Below, one piece after another: positions 14,698-62,433 of a DNA stretch of 64,000 bases; position 1 is the stretch's first letter; every line of letters starts with the position of its first letter. The stretch is from a virus, in IMG/VR virus record IMGVR_UViG_3300027704_000015, positions 1-64,000 of that record, one strand, 5' to 3'. The translations under genes were made by a program, and so were the position numbers. The notes beneath the pieces were generated by a model. That model saw nothing but the letters and a program-made list of their open reading frames with translations. It ran no database searches and was not told the origin of the DNA.

Positions 14698-17600
14698 ATG
14701 AAAAAGTTATTATTATTACTGGCACTATTGCCAACAATGTTATTAGCACAAAATAATAGCTGGCTTAAGCTTGACATACAGCTAGACCAATGGCCGGAGG
14801 AAAACTGCTGGGAGTTAAGAGAATTTACTACAGATACTTTAATATATGATGCCTGTGGAGACCCTTATTTCCCTAATGAATTTATAGAATTATATATTCC
14901 ATTACCAGCAGGTCAATATATCTTTAATTTTGTAGATTCATATGGTGATGGATTATCTACTGCAATTCCTTCATACGCTTTAGTTTCAAATGAATGTCAA
15001 GATACTCTATCCTATGTACATGGATTTGGTACCTCTTATAATGGAAACGATTCACTTGCATTAGCTAATGGATGGACAATACCAGGAATCATTACTCAAG
15101 GTTTTACAAGTGCAGCAGAGTTAATTGATACATTAACACTTGCACCTTGCGCTCCACCAACTACTTTTATACCTGGTTGTATGGACCCTATTGCAGAGAA
15201 TTATGACTCATTAGTAACCGTACCTCAATGGGGATATTCAGACCAATCTATTTGTACATATATTATAGGATGTACAGACCCATCAGCATTAAATTATGAT
15301 ACAGTAGCAACTTTAGCTGATGATGGTTTATGTATGTACCCACCATGTGGTGGCTTTGATACAATATCGGCTTCACAAACATGTATGGGTAATCAAACAA
15401 CATTAACATTTGAATGGGAAACATCTCTAACTGCATGTGATGTTGGTGAAATACATTATGGTTACGATTTATCAGCTGCACCATTTGTTCAAAGTCAATG
15501 GTTTCAAGGTGATGTTCCGTTAGGAGCTACACCTCCTACTACACTAGCATACACTATATTTGAATGTAGTTACTTTAATTATAACTGGAATGTTTTTGAA
15601 GCTAAAGCAGGTGGTAATTTCGTAACACAAGATATACCACACTTCTTCTTTGTTAAATTTGGCATTGCCGGTAATTTCACGTACAGTGATACAACATGGA
15701 TAACACCAGAACATTGTATTGTTGGATGTACAGACCCAACATCTAGTCAATATAACCCATTTGCAAATATAGATGATGGTAGTTGTCAAAATAGTGGTAC
15801 GACATGTGGCCCTGATTCCACTACAATTAACATTATACTAACTCCAGATACATATTCTGGTGAAACATCTTGGGAACTTATAGATTCTACAACTACACCT
15901 CCTACAATAATAGCTTCAAGTCCATTATATAGTGGATTAACAGGTATACCTACATCAACAATAGTATGTGTTGATAGTACAATGAACCTAGTATTTAATT
16001 TATATGATTCTTTTGGAGATGGAATGTGTGGTTCATGTTTTGGAGAGGCTGATGGTGAAGTATTGATATTAGATGAATCATGTGGTGATACATTGTTCCA
16101 CTTAACTTCACCTAATATGAATTTTGGTGTTGAACTTAGTGAATCATTTGGATTTCTTAATACATGTGGAATTAATGCTAGTGTATACGGTTGTACTGAC
16201 CCCGCATACGTTGAGTACGACGAATCATTTTTGTACGATGATGGTTCATGTTTAACATTAAACATTTATGGATGTACAGACTCTACTGCATTAAACTATG
16301 ACCCTAATGCAAATACACAAATAAATACACCATCATGTAATTATACATTAAGATTAACAGATGGTGCTGGCGATGGTTGGTTCGGTTCTTATATTGGGAT
16401 AGTACAGGGAGATTCATTATATGGTCCTTACACTTTTAATAATGGTTTCTATAATGATTTTAATATAAATTTAACAACAACCGAAAAAGCTAAAATATAT
16501 TTTTATACTCAAGGTAATTCATCAGGGACAGCAAGTCAATGTGGGTTTAAGTTAATTAATCCAGATGACGTTGTTACGTTTGAGGCTGGAACAAACCCAT
16601 GGACAGATGCTATCGTTCCATTTCCAAAAGTATATACAGCAGAACAAGATTGTGGTAATACTTGTTTACCGTCAGTTTTAGGGTGTATCGATTCATTTGC
16701 ATTTAATTATGATTCTTTAGCTAATACAACAGACAGCTCATGTTATTATAATCCAGGATGTACTGATGCTGCTTATTTAGAATATCATACTCAAGGATTT
16801 ATCGCTGATTTTAATAATGGTTCATGTTTATCATACGCTATATTTGGTTGTATGGATATGACAATGTTTAATTATGACCAATACGCGACAGTTCAATGGA
16901 CAACAGTATTAAATGATACAACTCCTTGTATTGCAAAAATACTTGGTTGTTTAGACCCAACTGCTTTTAATTACGACCCACTAGCAAATACAGAAAATTA
17001 TTCATGTGTCCCATTTATATATGGATGTATGGATGCAACACAATTCAATTATGATCCATCAGCGAATACTGATAACGGATCTTGTTTACCTTATATACTT
17101 GGTTGTACAGACTCAACAGCATTAAATTATGATGCTTTAGCTAATACTGATAACGGAACATGCATCCCTTTCTTATATGGATGTACAGACTCTTTAGCTT
17201 TAAATTATAACTCATTAGCGAATACAGATGATGGTTCTTGCATATCAACTATACTAGGTTGTACTGATGTTAGTGCTTTCAATTACGATTCACTAGCTAA
17301 TACTGATGATGGAACATGCGTTCCATTTATCTATGGATGTACAGATGCTTCACAGTTTAACTATAATGCTTTAGCTAATTCAGATGATGGATCATGTATA
17401 CCATTTATTTATGGTTGTACAGACCCCTCACAATTCAATTATAATGCTACTGCAAATACTGATAACGGATCCTGTATCCCATTTGTTTACGGATGTTTAG
17501 ATTCATTAGCATTTAATTTTAACCCACTAGCTAATACTGATAACGGATCATGTACACCAATAATACTTGGTTGCACAGATACCGCAGCAATCAATTATAA

Positions 17601-18894
17601 TCCTTTAGCAAATACAGAGGATGGTTCTTGTTTAGGTATTATATATGGATGTACTTCTCCAATAGCATTCAATTATGATTCAACTGCAAATTCAGATGAT
17701 GGTTCATGTATTCCTTTCATCTACGGTTGTATGGACAATACACAATTTAATTTCAATCCTTTAGCTAATTCAGATGATGGATCATGTATTCCAATCATTA
17801 ATGGATGTACTGACAACACTCAATTTAATTACAATCCATTAGCAAATACTGATAATGGATCATGTATTCCTTTTATCTTTGGATGTATGGATCCATTAGC
17901 ATTTAACTTTGATCCTCTAGCTAATACAGACAACAACGGATGTATAGCTGTAGTACTTGGATGTACTGATTCAACCTCAGTTACTTATGATCCTCTTGCA
18001 AATACGGATGATGGAAGTTGTATATCTCCATTGTATGGATGTACAGACTCAACGGCACTTAACTATAACAACTTAGCTAATGTAGATGACGGTTCATGTA
18101 TTGATATAGTTAATGGATGTACAGACCCATTAGCATTTAATTATAATTCATTGGCAAATGTAGATGACGGAACCTGTATTCCATTTATATATGGATGTAT
18201 TGATCCAACACAATTCAATTACGACATTACAGCTAATACTGATGATGGTTCATGTATTCCTTATATTTATGGGTGTATGGATATATTATCATTCAACTAC
18301 AATCCTTTAGCAAATACTGACAATGGATCATGTATAGCAATCATATTAGGATGCATGGATACAACAGCATTAAATTATGATATACTTGCTAATACAGAAT
18401 ATGTACCTTCTAATTGTATACTTCCTATATCAGGATGTACTGATGTTGCAGCTTACAATTACGATCCAATTGCTAACACTTCAGACTCTACAGCTTGTTT
18501 ATATGATGCAGGATGTTATGGAGGACCAGGAATGCCATATTGGTTAAACGATGGATGTTTTGCATGGGTAATCGATGTAGATGATTATTGCTGTACTACT
18601 GACTGGGACGCTTCATGTCAGTCAATGTATGATTACTGTCAACAAGGTTGGCCAACAGCAATACAAGATATATCAGCATTAGGTATTGTAGTGTATCCAA
18701 ACCCTACTAAAGATGTTATAACAATAGAAACAAGATTAGATATACAAGTTGAATTGTATGATATGACAGGTAAGAGAGTTATTAATGAATCTAACACTAA
18801 ACGATTAGACTTATCTAAATTGCCAAGTGGTATTTATAATATGTCAATACTTTACAATGATTCTAGATACAGTAAAAGGGTGATAAAACAATGA
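14698..18894 (+). CDS. Secreted Cys-rich repeat protein with T9SS type A C-terminal sorting domain
   Basis: Signal peptide ending LLA-Q; ~28 GCxD..A.NY...AN.DDGSC units; C-terminal VYPNPTKD...YDMTGK...LDLSKLPSGIY. Confidence 0.9.
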   Translation: MKKLLLLLALLPTMLLAQNNSWLKLDIQLDQWPEENCWELREFTTDTLIYDACGDPYFPNEFIELYIPLPAGQYIFNFVDSYGDGLSTAIPSYALVSNECQDTLSYVHGFGTSYNGNDSLALANGWTIPGIITQGFTSAAELIDTLTLAPCAPPTTFIPGCMDPIAENYDSLVTVPQWGYSDQSICTYIIGCTDPSALNYDTVATLADDGLCMYPPCGGFDTISASQTCMGNQTTLTFEWETSLTACDVGEIHYGYDLSAAPFVQSQWFQGDVPLGATPPTTLAYTIFECSYFNYNWNVFEAKAGGNFVTQDIPHFFFVKFGIAGNFTYSDTTWITPEHCIVGCTDPTSSQYNPFANIDDGSCQNSGTTCGPDSTTINIILTPDTYSGETSWELIDSTTTPPTIIASSPLYSGLTGIPTSTIVCVDSTMNLVFNLYDSFGDGMCGSCFGEADGEVLILDESCGDTLFHLTSPNMNFGVELSESFGFLNTCGINASVYGCTDPAYVEYDESFLYDDGSCLTLNIYGCTDSTALNYDPNANTQINTPSCNYTLRLTDGAGDGWFGSYIGIVQGDSLYGPYTFNNGFYNDFNINLTTTEKAKIYFYTQGNSSGTASQCGFKLINPDDVVTFEAGTNPWTDAIVPFPKVYTAEQDCGNTCLPSVLGCIDSFAFNYDSLANTTDSSCYYNPGCTDAAYLEYHTQGFIADFNNGSCLSYAIFGCMDMTMFNYDQYATVQWTTVLNDTTPCIAKILGCLDPTAFNYDPLANTENYSCVPFIYGCMDATQFNYDPSANTDNGSCLPYILGCTDSTALNYDALANTDNGTCIPFLYGCTDSLALNYNSLANTDDGSCISTILGCTDVSAFNYDSLANTDDGTCVPFIYGCTDASQFNYNALANSDDGSCIPFIYGCTDPSQFNYNATANTDNGSCIPFVYGCLDSLAFNFNPLANTDNGSCTPIILGCTDTAAINYNPLANTEDGSCLGIIYGCTSPIAFNYDSTANSDDGSCIPFIYGCMDNTQFNFNPLANSDDGSCIPIINGCTDNTQFNYNPLANTDNGSCIPFIFGCMDPLAFNFDPLANTDNNGCIAVVLGCTDSTSVTYDPLANTDDGSCISPLYGCTDSTALNYNNLANVDDGSCIDIVNGCTDPLAFNYNSLANVDDGTCIPFIYGCIDPTQFNYDITANTDDGSCIPYIYGCMDILSFNYNPLANTDNGSCIAIILGCMDTTALNYDILANTEYVPSNCILPISGCTDVAAYNYDPIANTSDSTACLYDAGCYGGPGMPYWLNDGCFAWVIDVDDYCCTTDWDASCQSMYDYCQQGWPTAIQDISALGIVVYPNPTKDVITIETRLDIQVELYDMTGKRVINESNTKRLDLSKLPSGIYNMSILYNDSRYSKRVIKQ
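16939..18500 (+). repeat. Coding tandem array, 78-bp (26-aa) period, ~20 units
   Basis: Consecutive GC(T/M/L/I)D...GSC units in the 1398-aa ORF. Confidence 0.9.
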
Positions 18895-54490: not shown

Positions 54491-54745
54491 ATGTTAGCTA
54501 TGGATAGCTATACTGATAATTACGATACATTTAGTGATGATGATGAATTACTAAACGCAGCTATTAGTAATACATATGAATATTTAGTTAGTGAGCTAGA
54601 GATATCTGAACTTCCAGCTGGTACATGGATGCTTAAGCAACCAAGGCGAGTTGCAACTATAGATCAGCTTATAGAGTACTTTACAGGAACAGAAGAGTAT
54701 GAGAAGTGTGCTGAACTAGTAAAGATAAAACAAACAATAAATTGA
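54491..54745 (+). CDS. Protein with C-terminal UVR-like motif
   Basis: LIEYFTGTEEYEKCAELVKIKQ. Confidence 0.6.
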   Translation: MLAMDSYTDNYDTFSDDDELLNAAISNTYEYLVSELEISELPAGTWMLKQPRRVATIDQLIEYFTGTEEYEKCAELVKIKQTIN

Positions 54746-55025
54746 CCGCTAGTACTTTTATTAGCTGCTCAAATGGACGAGGGTTCGACTCCCTCCATCT
54801 CCACAACAATTATATGTGAAAACATATAATACAATAAATTACATATAAAGTATATGTAATTACATATAATATGGGGATGACTTGGATATTGACATTGAGA
54901 TAAGGATTTAAGGAAGGTCACGCATAACAGGCGAACATGTTGAAATGGCAATGGCGGCTTAATAAAGTCCCCAGAACCGAACGGCGTTAACAGGGCAAGT
55001 CGTATAAGCCCGGTGGTGGTGGACC
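54741..55025 (+). ncRNA. ssrA: Circularly permuted (two-piece) tmRNA
   Basis: T-arm GAGGG-TTCGACT-CCCTC and 3' acceptor CATCTCC-A (to 54803) precede 5' acceptor GGGGATG (54873); G3-U70; tag GEHVEMAMAA at 54930-54962. Confidence 0.9.
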
Positions 55026-55040
55026 TATAAGGTATAAATT

Positions 55041-55733
55041 ATGACAATGATGAGTAGACCAATAATAAAGAAAAAGATTAAGCGTAACAATGTTGTGTAT
55101 AATCTTGAGTTATGGAATACGATAGATGATGATTTTATACCAAATGTATCAGAGCCACCCCAATTCCGAAAAGATTTCTTTAATGATGTAGCTATGGATG
55201 GTAAATGGCCTGACTCAACAGAGTATCAAGAGAGGTTCGATGATTGGTTTGATAATCTATCTAAAGACAAGCAAATTCAATATGCTAGAGCTATTGATGA
55301 GTCTAATAGGGTTATAATATTAATGGTGTGGGAGCAAGTTAATAAATTAGATAAGCATGAGTTGTTCAATAATAACATCAGGCAGTTTAGTATCTGGTTC
55401 TCAGGTTTGGATCCAGCTGATATTGACTTCTACATGACACGTATAATGTCTAAACGTCGTTTGATGCCTGCTGAGTTTAGAAGTGATAGCCCTGAGTTAT
55501 TATCTGCTGAAGAGATAACTAACGCGTTACAAGGTGTATATGATAGTATAAATGATGATTTAATTCGAGCAACAACTATTAACGGTCTACTGTGTATTAG
55601 CTGTACTGATGAATCAAGATTAGCTAAAGTAAAAAAGCATATGATAATGCATGGTAGTATATTACGTGATTATCGCAAGAAAGAAAACATCAGCGGTAAT
55701 ATGATTTATACATATATATTTTCTAAACCGTAA
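55041..55733 (+). CDS. Hypothetical phage protein
   Basis: 230-aa ORF. Confidence 0.55.
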   Translation: MTMMSRPIIKKKIKRNNVVYNLELWNTIDDDFIPNVSEPPQFRKDFFNDVAMDGKWPDSTEYQERFDDWFDNLSKDKQIQYARAIDESNRVIILMVWEQVNKLDKHELFNNNIRQFSIWFSGLDPADIDFYMTRIMSKRRLMPAEFRSDSPELLSAEEITNALQGVYDSINDDLIRATTINGLLCISCTDESRLAKVKKHMIMHGSILRDYRKKENISGNMIYTYIFSKP

Positions 55734-55799: not shown

Positions 55800-56339
55800 A
55801 TGAAGCAACTATTAATTTTACTATGTATGGCTACATCGTTATACGCAATATCGCAGACAACTATAAATCCAGACACTGTATGTTCTGGTGCAACAGCGGA
55901 GCAGTACTTTGTAACTAACACACCTACATCAACCTATCAATGGACTGTTAACGGAGGTGGTAGTTCTATACAGACAGGTCAGGGTACTAATCTAATAACA
56001 GTTGACTGGGGTACAGTTGCAGGGTTATACTCTAATGCGGTCGAAGTTGTAGAGTCAAACGCTGCAGGATGCCCTGGTTTGCCTATATTATTAGATGTAT
56101 TTATATTAAGTCTATCAAGTAATCTCATAGGACCTTTCTGTCCAGGTGATCCGTCTGCATCGTTAGTTGGTAATCCGATCGGTGGAACTTGGTCAGGCAC
56201 AGGAGTAACAGGAAATAATTTTGATCCTGCATCTGGTATAGGAAATTATATACTAACTTACTCATTAGCGGGTTGTACAACTACAATAAATGTTATTGTT
56301 AATAGTGGTCCAATTACTGGACCTATTCAACACTTTTAA
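55800..56339 (+). CDS. Secreted PKD/Ig-like domain protein
   Basis: Signal peptide; TYQWTV.GG, GQGTN.ITVDW, GGTWSGTG. Confidence 0.7.
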   Translation: MKQLLILLCMATSLYAISQTTINPDTVCSGATAEQYFVTNTPTSTYQWTVNGGGSSIQTGQGTNLITVDWGTVAGLYSNAVEVVESNAAGCPGLPILLDVFILSLSSNLIGPFCPGDPSASLVGNPIGGTWSGTGVTGNNFDPASGIGNYILTYSLAGCTTTINVIVNSGPITGPIQHF

Positions 56340-56340
56340 T

Positions 56341-56871
56341 ATGAGATGGTTAGTAATATTATTACTACCTTTTCAGTTATTAGCTCAAGAAACTTATAAT
56401 GATTGCGCAACTATTGAACCTCAATCATATCAAGTAAGCTATGAAGTTGATAAGATATACTACTGGTCAATCTCTAACGGAGAGGTAGTATCTACGTTTG
56501 ACAATACAATAACAGTACAATGGCCTGATACTGCAGGAGAGTACCTCATTTCAGTATATACTACTAGATTTGGATGTGAAGGAGATACCTCTAGCTATCA
56601 AGTGGTTATAAATGAATGTCCATACGCTACATTATTCTTTCCGAGCTCATTTACACCAAACAAGGATGGAATTAATGAAACATACTTTATAGGAGGTAAA
56701 TCAGCTGATAATATTGAGTATATTACGATATATAACAGGTGGGGTAATAGGGTATTTGAAGCTGATGGAAATATGCCATGGACGGGTGATGAATGTGCGG
56801 CTGGCGTTTATGTTGTTAGTGTATTTGTTAATAATAATAGGTTTACAAGAAAGGTTACTTTAATACGATGA
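56341..56871 (+). CDS. Secreted protein with T9SS type B (gliding motility-associated) C-terminal domain
   Basis: Start MRWLVILLLPF; LFFPSSFTPNKDGINETY...IYNRWGNRVF...VTLIR. Confidence 0.85.
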   Translation: MRWLVILLLPFQLLAQETYNDCATIEPQSYQVSYEVDKIYYWSISNGEVVSTFDNTITVQWPDTAGEYLISVYTTRFGCEGDTSSYQVVINECPYATLFFPSSFTPNKDGINETYFIGGKSADNIEYITIYNRWGNRVFEADGNMPWTGDECAAGVYVVSVFVNNNRFTRKVTLIR

Positions 56872-57553: not shown

Positions 57554-57967
57554 ATGGGAAATTTAACACCATTCGGCACATCGCCATTCGACGTCCTTTT
57601 CAAGGACTTTTTCAAGACAGATGTAGACTACCAGTTTGCAGATGCAACTAAACTAAACCATCCAGTAGACATATACGAGGCCAATGACGGTCTTAATATA
57701 GATATTGCTTGTGTTGGGTTAACTAAAAAGGATATTGAGCTCACTATTGAGGGAGATATTCTTCGAGTAGAATATAAAAAAGAAGCTGGCCATAACGGGG
57801 CAGAATACATTCAGAGAAACATTGCTAAACGAGCGTTCAACTTTGGATGGAGAATAAGCGGAAGATTTGATCTATCAAATTTACAAGCTAAACTAGAAAA
57901 TGGTTTACTAACTCTATTTGCACCAATTGCAGATGAGGCTAAACCTAAATCTATAACTATTAAGTAG
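57554..57967 (+). CDS. Small heat-shock protein (Hsp20/alpha-crystallin)
   Basis: PVDIYE, DIELTIEGDIL, AKLENGLLTL. Confidence 0.92.
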   Translation: MGNLTPFGTSPFDVLFKDFFKTDVDYQFADATKLNHPVDIYEANDGLNIDIACVGLTKKDIELTIEGDILRVEYKKEAGHNGAEYIQRNIAKRAFNFGWRISGRFDLSNLQAKLENGLLTLFAPIADEAKPKSITIK

Positions 57968-58513: not shown

Positions 58514-58621
<108 letters not shown>

Positions 58622-58645
58622 GATATTTATAATAAGAGGAATAAT

Positions 58646-58820: not shown

Positions 58821-60152
58821 ATGCAGAAACACTTATTTCCAATTATAATTACGCTAAGTGCACTTGCCGTTTCAGGTAGTGCTGCATTCTATTCTGTTTA
58901 TGGATTAAGTAAGTTGTTTGCGGGAGCAAGCTTACAAGTTATGATTATGGCTGGTTCATTAGAGTTTGCAAAATTGGTTGTTGCATCTTTACTATACCAG
59001 TATTGGGACACAATAAATAAAGGTTTACGAGCATATCTATCTATAGCATGTCTTGTGTTAATACTAATAACATCAGGTGGTATATATGGATTCTTATCAG
59101 GCGCATATCAATCCACTGCTACTCAATCAGAGCTACTTGACAAATCCCTTATGATTCTAAATCAAAAACAGATTAGATTTGAGGAGCAGAAAGAGGATCT
59201 TAAGATAGAAAAGCAGGGATTATCTAAATCAATATCAGATCTAAGAGTCGCTCTATCTAATCCAGCGCAAGTGCAGTACATAGATAAGGAATCAGGTACG
59301 TTAATTACAACATCATCATCTTCAGCAAGAAGAGCTCTTCAAGGTGAACTATCTACAGCTACTAATAACAGAGATGTTATAAATTTAAAGATGGAAGCTG
59401 TAATGGATTCTATTAATAAAACAGATATGGCATTGCTAGATAAAGAGATATCTAATGAAGCTGAGAGTGAGCTAGGTCCTTTAAAATATTTAGCTGAAAT
59501 AACTGGTAAGGATATGGGAGTTGTTGTTAATTGGTTCTTATTATTAATTATATTTGTATTTGATCCTTTAGCTATAGCGTTAGTAGTAGCAGCTAATATG
59601 GCATTTGCACAAATAACTCCTAAAGTTACTATGTCTGTACCAGTCGGTAAAAAGTTTAACACACCCTACCCAGTACCTTTGAACATTGAGAACCCATCAA
59701 GTGAATTAAAAACTCGTGTTGCTAATAATCAAGCAAGATTAAAAGATCAAGAGTATAGTCAAGATAACTGGGATATTAAAGTGCATAGTTCAAGTTTAAA
59801 TCCGAACAGTTTATCTAGTAGTATTAAGGTTGAGAGAAAGGATCTAGTAATGGATGATCTTGAGACGAATATATCTAAACCGGAAAAGGTTGAAATTGGA
59901 TTAGATGCGTTGATCGATATACTGGAGGATGAAGAATTGCAACTACCAGAAAATTCTGTTACTGAGACTGATATACCCTTACCAGTTGAAAAAAATATTC
60001 CAGCTGCTGAGCAATCAAGCGAGCACACACTATACCATGGTGATTCAAAGCAAAAATCATTAAGTACTAACGATAAACGTAGAAAGCGTGTTATCAAACG
60101 ACCTAAACACAATCCAAACAAACCACATAACCCGAACCCTTATAAAGGATAA
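58821..60152 (+). CDS. Multi-TM coiled-coil membrane protein
   Basis: Three N-terminal TMs, long coiled coil, IIFVFDPLAIAL helix. Confidence 0.65.
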   Translation: MQKHLFPIIITLSALAVSGSAAFYSVYGLSKLFAGASLQVMIMAGSLEFAKLVVASLLYQYWDTINKGLRAYLSIACLVLILITSGGIYGFLSGAYQSTATQSELLDKSLMILNQKQIRFEEQKEDLKIEKQGLSKSISDLRVALSNPAQVQYIDKESGTLITTSSSSARRALQGELSTATNNRDVINLKMEAVMDSINKTDMALLDKEISNEAESELGPLKYLAEITGKDMGVVVNWFLLLIIFVFDPLAIALVVAANMAFAQITPKVTMSVPVGKKFNTPYPVPLNIENPSSELKTRVANNQARLKDQEYSQDNWDIKVHSSSLNPNSLSSSIKVERKDLVMDDLETNISKPEKVEIGLDALIDILEDEELQLPENSVTETDIPLPVEKNIPAAEQSSEHTLYHGDSKQKSLSTNDKRRKRVIKRPKHNPNKPHNPNPYKG

Positions 60153-60945: not shown

Positions 60946-61608
60946 ATGTCAAAGAATATATACGGTAATTACGAGGAGCAAGAAGAAGATTTGAATAAAA
61001 ACTCAAACGCATCTGACGAGGAAGTTTATTATGAAGATGAGCTTGAGAAAAAGCATCTCTATAAAGAGATAGAATTTGCAGTAGATGTAGAAGATAGTAT
61101 TATCTATATTATAGGTGAAATTGAAGATTTCGGTTTATATGATTTTATGGTTAGGTGTAGAGCTATATTGCGTAATCGTCAAGAGGGTGATGATTCACCA
61201 ATTAATGTAGTTATTGACTCTGTAGGTGGTGATGTGTATGAGATGTTCGGTATAATCGATTATATTGAAAGTCTGGAGAAAAACAGTAACATTAAAGTTA
61301 ATACAATATGTAGAGGTAAAGCAATGAGTGCAGGTGCAATGATACTAGCCAGTGGTACAGGTAAGAGATATGCTAGCAAGAGGTCAACAATAATGATACA
61401 TGAAGGTTCATCGATGCAAGCAGGTAAGTCATCAGATTTAAAAGCTGCACATAAATATAATTCACATCTAGAAGAAATGGCTAATGCATTATTAGGTGAG
61501 AAGACATCAAAAGATAAAAAATTCTGGTCTGAACAAACAAAAACTGACCTTTATTTATCCGCAAAAGATGCTCAAAAGTTGGGCGTTATAGACGGTATAA
61601 TTAATTAA
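60946..61608 (+). CDS. clpP: ATP-dependent Clp protease proteolytic subunit
   Basis: IDSVGGDV, AMSAG (Ser), IMIHE (His), DLYLSAKDA..LGVID (Asp). Confidence 0.88.
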   Translation: MSKNIYGNYEEQEEDLNKNSNASDEEVYYEDELEKKHLYKEIEFAVDVEDSIIYIIGEIEDFGLYDFMVRCRAILRNRQEGDDSPINVVIDSVGGDVYEMFGIIDYIESLEKNSNIKVNTICRGKAMSAGAMILASGTGKRYASKRSTIMIHEGSSMQAGKSSDLKAAHKYNSHLEEMANALLGEKTSKDKKFWSEQTKTDLYLSAKDAQKLGVIDGIIN

Positions 61609-61611
61609 TAT

Positions 61612-62433
61612 ATGAAATTAAACGAAAAACAAATTACAGGAAACTGGGCAGATTTAATTGGTCGTATTACACACCAATTTAGTGGTGAACGACAAGACAA
61701 GTTATTAGAAATGTATAACTACTTTGCAGATAGAATGATGTTCGCCCCTGCAAGCTCTAGGGAGCATTACCATAATTGTTTTCCAGGTGGTTACGTGGAT
61801 CATGTTTTACGTGTTATGGATTGTTCATTTGATCTATACAATTCCTGGATGATGCAAGGTGCTTACACTGACAACTACTCGGTTGAAGAGTTAATGTTTG
61901 CTGCATTAAATCATGATTTAGGTAAGATAGGTGATCTAGAGAATGATACCTACATACCCAACACGTCTGAATGGCATAGAAAGAACCAGGGAGCTCTGTA
62001 TACAGTAAATCCTAAAACTGAATTTAGTCTTGTTCCAGATAGAAGTTTATTTTTATTACAGCATTTTGGTATTAAATACTCTTGGAATGAGTTCTTAGGT
62101 ATACGGACGCATGATGGTATGTATGAAGAAGCTAATAAGCCATATCTAGTTAGTTTTAATCCTGACTCTAGATTACGTTCAAATTTACCTCTTATACTCC
62201 ATCAAGCTGATATGATGGCTTCTAGAGTAGAGTGGGAGCGATGGAAGTATGGTGAAAACGGGCTACAAGGTAATCGAACATTAACAGATGTATCTAAAGA
62301 CAAGATGATGGATCATGTAGTTAAGAAACCAGCAGCTGCACCGAAATCTGTCCCTAAAAAGAAACCAAATCCTGCTTCACAACTTAATACTGGAGCAGAT
62401 ACTAGTAAACTATTTGATGAGTTATTCAAATGA
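61612..62433 (+). CDS. HD-domain phosphohydrolase
   Basis: APAS...H...GGYVDH, LNHDLGK, H, HQAD. Confidence 0.85.
   Translation: MKLNEKQITGNWADLIGRITHQFSGERQDKLLEMYNYFADRMMFAPASSREHYHNCFPGGYVDHVLRVMDCSFDLYNSWMMQGAYTDNYSVEELMFAALNHDLGKIGDLENDTYIPNTSEWHRKNQGALYTVNPKTEFSLVPDRSLFLLQHFGIKYSWNEFLGIRTHDGMYEEANKPYLVSFNPDSRLRSNLPLILHQADMMASRVEWERWKYGENGLQGNRTLTDVSKDKMMDHVVKKPAAAPKSVPKKKPNPASQLNTGADTSKLFDELFK

Follow-up and report, generated by a model that had tools for sequence, protein, structure and literature searches.

A gene for a compact two-piece tmRNA in a phage that very probably infects Bacteroidota

The DNA considered here (the window) is a stretch of 64,000 nucleotides from an uncultured marine phage, recorded as an IMG/VR entry of 79,962 bases, the completeness of which is estimated by CheckV at 46%. 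On its plus strand, at 54743-55025, lies a permuted tmRNA gene, recognised by ARAGORN and by the Rfam model RF04321 (tmRNA_permuted), with the tag GEHVEMAMAA and two stop codons. It is the single gene reported by ARAGORN in the 64-kb window, as a permuted tmRNA extending from 54711 to 55053 with that same tag and both stops, and RF04321 matches 54754-54962 through its model positions 1-213 with 55.7 bits (gathering score 47) and E = 3.9e-8 for the window, values that are far above chance level. The permuted order (acceptor piece first, coding piece second) is indicated both by the ARAGORN flag and by the RF04321 match. A permuted two-piece tmRNA had been proposed at this position from the letters alone (the original prediction), and both detectors bear it out, ARAGORN with the same tag and the permuted Rfam model with a score above its threshold. 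The parts of the gene are as follows.

54743-54803 (+): acceptor piece, placed by sequence, ARAGORN, RF04321 and covariation
54743-54747 (+): P2d strand TGACC of the acceptor piece, overlapping the TGA stop of the upstream ORF
54755-54761 (+): P2c strand of the acceptor piece
54762-54767 (+): conserved internal-loop strand TAGCTG of the acceptor piece
54768-54774 (+): P2a strand of the acceptor piece
54775-54778 (+): GGAC of the acceptor piece
54779-54795 (+): T-arm GAGGG-TTCGACT-CCCTC, with strands GAGGG (54779-54783) and CCCTC (54791-54795)
54796-54802 (+): acceptor 3′ strand CATCTCC
54803 (+): discriminator A, followed by CAA
54804-54872 (+): AT-rich intervening segment (69 nt) in which two AT-rich hairpins lie, at 54809-54830 and 54837-54861
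54873-54929 (+): 5′ part of the coding piece, placed by sequence and covariation
54873-54879 (+): acceptor 5′ strand GGGGATG, with G3 at 54875 and its partner at T54800
54880-54893 (+): D-loop analogue with UUGAC
54894-54899 (+): P2a strand of the coding piece
54900-54905 (+): loop ATAAGG of the coding piece
54906-54912 (+): P2c strand of the coding piece
54916-54920 (+): P2d strand GGTCA of the coding piece
54921-54929 (+): 9-nt linker from P2d to the resume codon, lacking pseudoknot 1
54925-54942 (+): hairpin presenting the resume codon, UAACA (54925-54929) with UGUUG (54938-54942)
54930-54959 (+): tag frame GGC...GCT (GEHVEMAMAA), then TAA TAA at 54960-54965
54952-54973 (+): helix-5-like hairpin, 54952-54960 with 54965-54973
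54981-55011 (+): H-type pseudoknot downstream of the tag (S1 and S2), placed by covariation
54981-54985 and 54999-55003 (+): pseudoknot S1, ACGGC with GTCGT
54993-54996 and 55008-55011 (+): pseudoknot S2, GGGC with GCCC
55012-55025 (+): G-rich 3′ tail (GGTGGTGGTGGACC), with GG(U/A)GG repeats kept in the family

The tRNA-like domain is complete, with an acceptor stem of 7 pairs that includes G3-U70, a T-arm carrying GGUUCGAnUCC and a discriminator A. The T-arm, the run CATCTCC-A, the 69-nt segment and the GGGGATG at 54873 had all been read beforehand, and each is exact in the sequence, as is the incompletely encoded CCA: the residues that follow A54803 are CAA, so that only the first C of CCA is present. 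This is not disqualifying, because the same holds in most one-piece genes of Bacteroidota (58/64). The inter-piece helices CTCAAAT/ATTGAG and TGACC/GGTCA are both present and, after ATAACA, the tag codons can be read directly as GGC GAA CAT GTT GAA ATG GCA ATG GCG GCT TAA TAA, in agreement with ARAGORN.

To place the gene among its relatives, IMG/VR was scanned with two patterns, one for the 29-nt T-arm/acceptor sequence and another for the 5′ end of the coding piece. Many permuted tmRNAs were recovered in this way, among which one coherent family has the full architecture of the window gene and includes at least 14 distinct homologues in marine phage contigs. The tags of the family are GEHVEMAMAA, GEQVELAMAA, GEQVEYAMAA, GKQVEYAMAA, GEQVYMAMAA and GAQVEMAMAA, the last of them being that of the closest relatives (L037 and L038); the stop codon varies between TAA, TGA and TAG across members, and the tag frame and the AMAA end are fixed. 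The tmRNA of L038 scores 69.5 bits on RF04321. ARAGORN misses the tmRNAs of both closest relatives (at about 2040-2270 in L037 and 2760-2990 in L038), which have the T-loop TTCGAAA and are plain in the sequence. Within the family, CCA is encoded in L222 only. Spacer length ranges from 15 to 70 nt, many members having 15-21 nt and others about 70 nt; for instance, it is 17 nt in the closest relatives, compared with 69 nt in the window, and the flanking genes are identical in kind. Such variation between close relatives fits a discarded segment, and the 69-nt intervening segment is presumed to be removed from the RNA. Searches of INPHARED with blastn and megablast at E ≤ 1e-5 returned no relative from an isolated phage, and relaxed searches matched the tRNA-like domain only.

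The structure was tested on an alignment of 14 distinct sequences (A1), covering the acceptor stem, the T-arm and the inter-piece helices P2a, P2c and P2d. In this alignment, 97.4% of the cells pair and 14 of the 30 pairs have changed on both sides, whereas sliding the partners by 1-3 columns, as a control, leaves only 45-54% paired, and the observed covariation score was reached by none of 500 shuffles. The acceptor and T-arm pairs are 100% paired across the 14 sequences, with compensatory changes among them, and G3-U70 is invariant, being G-U in 14 of 14. Additionally, RNAalifold recovers, when no structure is supplied, the same helices together with the resume-codon hairpin and helix 5. The two pieces can join through the 7-bp acceptor stem and the three inter-piece P2 helices, all of which are kept by compensatory changes. 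By contrast, a single-sequence cofold of both pieces does not reproduce the P2 helices, and in it the acceptor 3′ strand is taken up by the G-rich tail, so that the structure rests on comparative evidence and not on thermodynamics.

These comparisons bear on whether there is a gene here at all. The locus could be an ssrA 3′ fragment (a phage attachment site) or a detector artefact, as the 3′ ends of many bacterial tmRNAs contain its 29-nt T-arm/acceptor sequence unchanged and a permuted call made by ARAGORN in Cellulophaga phage phi4:1 is spurious. However, the 5′ acceptor strand, the tag frame and the compensatory inter-piece helices are kept in at least 14 distinct sequences, and the RF04321 score lies above its gathering threshold. 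As the two pieces covary, the fragment or artefact reading is contradicted, and we regard it as extremely improbable. Judging from this sequence comparison, the tmRNA gene is real and under selection, and the two-piece architecture that had been proposed holds in every part, with acceptor piece, spacer, coding piece and each named helix in place and at least 14 covarying homologues.

Several features of the coding piece are shared by the family. The distance from P2d to the resume codon is 9-13 nt, which leaves no room for pseudoknot 1 (PK1), and the alignment to RF04321 has a deletion in place of the PK1 hairpin of that model. The resume codon occupies the loop of a hairpin whose closing pair is made by the base preceding that codon and the third base of codon 3; this pair (54929/54938) is compensatory in the RNAalifold alignment, being A-U in 6 sequences and U-A in 8. 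In the helix-5-like hairpin, the stem contains the last Ala codons, the stop codons are at the loop, and two pairs covary. Similarly, S2 of the downstream pseudoknot changes in a compensatory manner across the family (GGGC/GCCC, GAAGC/GCTTC, GGGAT/ATCCC, GGGAC/GTCCC and GAGAC/GTCTC). A further helix, pairing the GGNGG tail to the CCCCAG region, was considered and rejected, as it has no consistent covariation and CCCCA forms helix 5 with the last part of the tag.

Two other elements deserve mention. In the 3′ tail (55012-55025) and at the equivalent position of relatives, the GG(U/A)GG repeats show complementarity to the CCA end and to the acceptor 3′ strand; they could be a signal for processing, an element resembling a ribosome-binding site or one side of an alternative pairing. 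Between P2a and P2c there is an invariant 6x6 internal loop, in which TAGCTG (54762-54767) lies opposite ATAAGG (54900-54905); its letters could form tandem G-A pairs, and it may be a protein-binding or tertiary motif.

Although the large genes of the record have almost no PHROG or Pfam matches, two ORFs carry informative domains. The ORF at 14698-18894 ends in a type A sorting domain of the type IX secretion system (T9SS), with 48.7 bits on TIGR04183 (cut-off 23) and 50.4 bits on PF18962, and the ORF at 56290-56871 has a CHU_C type sorting domain, with 44.4 bits on PF13585 (cut-off 27) and 33.7 bits on TIGR04131, just below the cut-off of 35. C-terminal sorting domains of the T9SS are specific to Bacteroidota and their relatives, and their presence in phage proteins (type A and CHU_C) implies use of the secretion system of a Bacteroidota host. 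The nearest isolate match of a conserved 443-aa protein is in Flavobacterium phage immuto (45% identity). Moreover, the 29-nt T-arm/acceptor sequence is identical in many one-piece tmRNAs, mostly from Bacteroidota and including Flavobacteriaceae with the tag GENNYALAA, and a G resume codon, UUGAC and an unencoded CCA go together in 58 of the 64 G-resume one-piece tmRNAs of our sample, mostly Bacteroidota, whereas A-resume one-piece genes in the same sample mostly have UCGAC and an encoded CCA. The T9SS domains, the Flavobacterium phage homologue, the tRNA-like domain and the start of the tag indicate that the host is very probably a member of the Bacteroidota and probably a flavobacterium. The attribution to a Bacteroidota phage had been made before these domains, the immuto homologue and the Bacteroidota-type tRNA-like domain were brought to bear, and agrees with all three. 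The tag, proposed to be host-compatible, begins like Bacteroidota tags (G resume codon, GE).

Taking together the detectors, the family, the covariation and the host signals, we assign a probability of roughly 0.8 to the reading that the locus is a working-looking phage gene for a compact class of two-piece tmRNA carried by Bacteroidota phages. By analogy with the known biology of the tmRNA family, one precursor would be transcribed from the locus, RNase P would cut 5′ of G54873, and the acceptor piece would be trimmed after A54803 (or C54804), its CCA end being completed by the host CCA-adding enzyme. The RNA would then be charged with alanine by the host AlaRS and, with host SmpB, would enter ribosomes stalled on broken mRNAs during infection; translation would resume at GGC and add A-GEHVEMAMAA, the ...MAA end of which would mark the product for host Clp-type proteolysis. 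In such an RNA, the extended P2c/P2d helix may stand in for pseudoknot 1. As there is no SmpB gene in the 80-kb record (46% complete according to CheckV), function would depend on the SmpB of the host.

The surroundings of the gene are also conserved, with a block across the family formed by Hsp20, the tmRNA, a 230-aa ORF, the 443-aa ORF, a ClpP-related peptidase and a 273-aa HD-like ORF. In the window, the conserved block proteins lie at 57554-57967, 58821-60152, 60946-61608 and 61612-62433, and Hsp20 corresponds to PF00011. No annotation could be obtained for the highly conserved 443-aa protein, which in Pelagibacter phage Mosig has a homologue located about 3.7 kb away from the tmRNA. The ClpP-related peptidase scores 98.7 bits on PF00574, its best PHROG is the head maturation protease, and neither reading is backed by a score above an NCBIfam cut-off, so that a functional link to the tag is no more than a possibility. 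A phage ClpP specific for the tag was considered and set aside, as the ClpP-like ORF matches head-maturation proteases about as well as, or at least as well as, cellular ClpP.

This block enters into a different view of the function, in which the RNA would act mainly against the host, either by competing for SmpB and ribosomes or through a phage-specific tag that spares its products or hands them to phage factors. The middle of the tag, HVEM, differs from the NNY(A) of the host, the ClpP-related peptidase and Hsp20 are encoded in the same conserved block, and a phage tmRNA consisting of the tRNA domain only has been reported to inhibit host tmRNA (PMC4131195, PMC11915505). Nevertheless, the GE start and the hydrophobic-Ala-Ala end of the tag are under selection, as in host tags, and the ClpP-like protein fits head-maturation families at least as well as cellular ClpP and attains no curated cut-off. 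We therefore judge a role mainly against the host to be improbable.

Regarding expression, a scan of the tmRNA locus for sigma-70-type promoters and terminators gave none above shuffled controls. The motif GATATTTATAAT is found directly upstream of the acceptor piece in most relatives (L008, L003, L005, L170 and L222) and exactly once in the window, at 58622-58633, upstream of the 443-aa gene cluster and beside three TTATATATAATA repeats (58557-58611). We regard the motif as a candidate promoter of the phage, although its 44 matches in the window, where 34 ± 7 are expected, do not amount to enrichment. A DUF805b RNA motif (RF02914) lies 1-1.5 kb from the tmRNA in L008 (10073-10107), L003 (8240-8274) and L170 (4587-4622), and was not found by Rfam in the window itself.

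The origin of the permutation is a separate question. Besides the merged model RF04321, Rfam has permuted-tmRNA models for the alphaproteobacterial (RF01849), betaproteobacterial (RF01850) and cyanobacterial (RF01851) types, with gathering scores of 50, 84 and 70, respectively. At the tmRNA locus there is no match to the alpha model (score 0), and the beta and cyano models give 30.6 and 21.5 bits, in the tRNA-like domain only and in both cases below the gathering score. These failures are informative, because the same models recognise control phage tmRNAs: Pelagibacter phage Mosig obtains 67.6 bits on RF01849, and phage genes with AND... tags and the shared 29-mer obtain 100-116 bits on the beta model. 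All the G-resume phage genes tested (the window family, the more distant L029, L216 and L243, Chryseobacterium phage MA9V-3 and crAss-like cr10_1) match RF04321 alone, which, together with the failure of the lineage models, sets them apart as a distinct structural class tied to Bacteroidota phages.

On this basis it is conceivable, although we put it at somewhat less than an even chance, that Bacteroidota phages (marine flavobacterial, crAss-like and Chryseobacterium phages) carry a fourth, independently permuted tmRNA lineage derived from a Bacteroidota-type ssrA, in which pseudoknot 1 was replaced by an intermolecular helix and the resume codon lies in a covarying hairpin. It may also be that the two-piece tmRNA is real and descends from an alpha-, beta- or cyano-type gene moving among marine phages, its tRNA-like domain and tag having been remodelled later for the AlaRS, SmpB and proteases of Bacteroidota. 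Such a descent would be in keeping with the identical 29-nt T-arm/acceptor sequence in beta-type phage tmRNAs, with the three-helix P2 layout, which is that of the RF04321 consensus, and with the non-tRNA parts, whose similarity to one-piece Bacteroidota tmRNAs is not significant (score 18, against a shuffled maximum averaging 18.6). By contrast, the scores on the three lineage models fall short where the same models detect the AND-tag phage genes and Mosig, the window gene lacks the PK1 hairpin that the known lineages have in their consensus, and CCA is encoded in the beta-type phage genes and not in the window gene; we consider non-independent descent unlikely. Two related proposals were also rejected. 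The P2 strands are no more similar to one-piece Bacteroidota tmRNAs than shuffled controls are, and the one-piece tmRNAs of Cellulophaga phages Calle_1 and phi40:1 (87 bits on RF00023), considered as possible ancestors, are similar in the tRNA-like domain only. The independent permutation put forward in the original prediction is in line with the lack of a fitting lineage model and with the Bacteroidota signatures; but the non-tRNA parts show no significant similarity to one-piece Bacteroidota tmRNAs, and the signatures belong to parts that have to suit the AlaRS, SmpB and proteases of the host, so independence is not established.

That an RNA gene can be rearranged and still work is classically illustrated by the permuted tmRNAs, of which three bacterial lineages are recognised. 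If a compact class were indeed restricted to phages of Bacteroidota, it would constitute a further case and, with no PK1, one pseudoknot and an RNA core of about 215 nt, would show how little a tmRNA needs and provide a natural minimal scaffold for structural work. The current lineage models and ARAGORN miss or under-describe such genes. The gain is modest, however, since the gene is already picked up by standard tools and there are related records.

Indeed, two-piece tmRNAs of phages, including those of Bacteroidota phages, are already in public records, and their novelty had been overstated. Buchholz et al. reported 53 two-piece calls by ARAGORN among 402 tmRNA-bearing phages, mostly aquatic (PMC9004378), and Table S1 of that work enters five crAssphages and Cellulophaga phage phi4:1 as 'Permuted'. 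The last of these (NC_021788; L281 13919-14580) was discarded as a prior Bacteroidota example: it has no RF04321 match and the ARAGORN call, with 'Tag not identified', spans a cluster of tRNA genes, which makes it a false positive of ARAGORN. In GenBank, permuted tmRNAs are annotated in crAss-like cr10_1 and in Chryseobacterium phage MA9V-3, and a 2025 tmRNA database counts, with no remark on them, 79 sequences from phages and 48 permuted instances from Bacteroidota assemblies. Our literature search found no published description of the compact PK1-less two-piece class.

Two-piece tmRNAs are described in Alphaproteobacteria, a betaproteobacterial group and marine cyanobacteria (Keiler et al. 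2000, Sharkady & Williams 2004, as cited in PMC9004378 and PMC11915505). As in these types, the acceptor piece of the window gene comes first, the acceptor stem and a three-part P2 hold the pieces together, G3-U70 is present, the tag ORF ends in Ala-Ala and there are fewer pseudoknots. Unlike them, the window gene fails all three lineage models, has no PK1 hairpin, resumes on a Gly codon (GGC), does not encode CCA, has UUGAC instead of UCGAC in the D-loop analogue and is carried by a Bacteroidota phage. Marine myophages, such as the OM43 phage Melnitz, Pelagibacter phage Mosig and cyanophages, also have two-piece tmRNAs, some of them with a glutamine riboswitch (PMC9004378). They resemble our case in being permuted ssrA genes borne by marine viruses between protein genes, but they are of alpha type (Mosig, with the RF01849 score given above), whereas the window gene is of none of the three types; Rfam detected no riboswitch in the window.

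The tmRNAs of crAss-like cr10_1 (MT774382 / NC_055875) and Chryseobacterium phage MA9V-3 (PV245944.1) are real genes with G3-U70 that score 49.6 and 64.7 bits, respectively, on RF04321. Like the window gene, they are Bacteroidota-associated and permuted, have a Gly resume codon and no encoded CCA, and show a short linker lacking PK1 between P2 and the resume codon. By contrast, their tags (GNNFVTDYTQLAVA and GNVIDINKYVAKLEVAA) and the region after the tag differ, the coding piece of MA9V-3 ends in a terminator-like hairpin with no pseudoknot, and blastn finds no similarity of either gene to the window gene outside the tRNA-like domain. In cr10_1, a RAGATH-9 RNA (RF03146, 97 bits; L274 123-301) lies about 1.2 kb upstream of the permuted tmRNA, and a tRNA lies directly 3′ of its coding piece. 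T-arm-like sequences occur in the long spacers of some distant permuted phage tmRNAs (GGTAGTTCGAGTCTACC in L219, with a spacer of about 230 nt, and GAGGTTCGACTCCTC in cr10_1), a hint of tRNA-like elements inside the excised segment.

Finally, the one-piece tmRNAs of Bacteroidota, with about 390 nt, PK1 and further pseudoknots, have P2 and pseudoknot regions that cannot be aligned with the window gene. Nevertheless, those of two Flavobacteriaceae MAGs (L054 and L116, with the tag GENNYALAA) share with it the identical 29-nt T-arm/acceptor sequence, the 5′ start GGGGATGAC, UUGAC, resumption on GGC GAA/GAG, AAC(U/A) preceding the resume codon and a CCA end that is not encoded.
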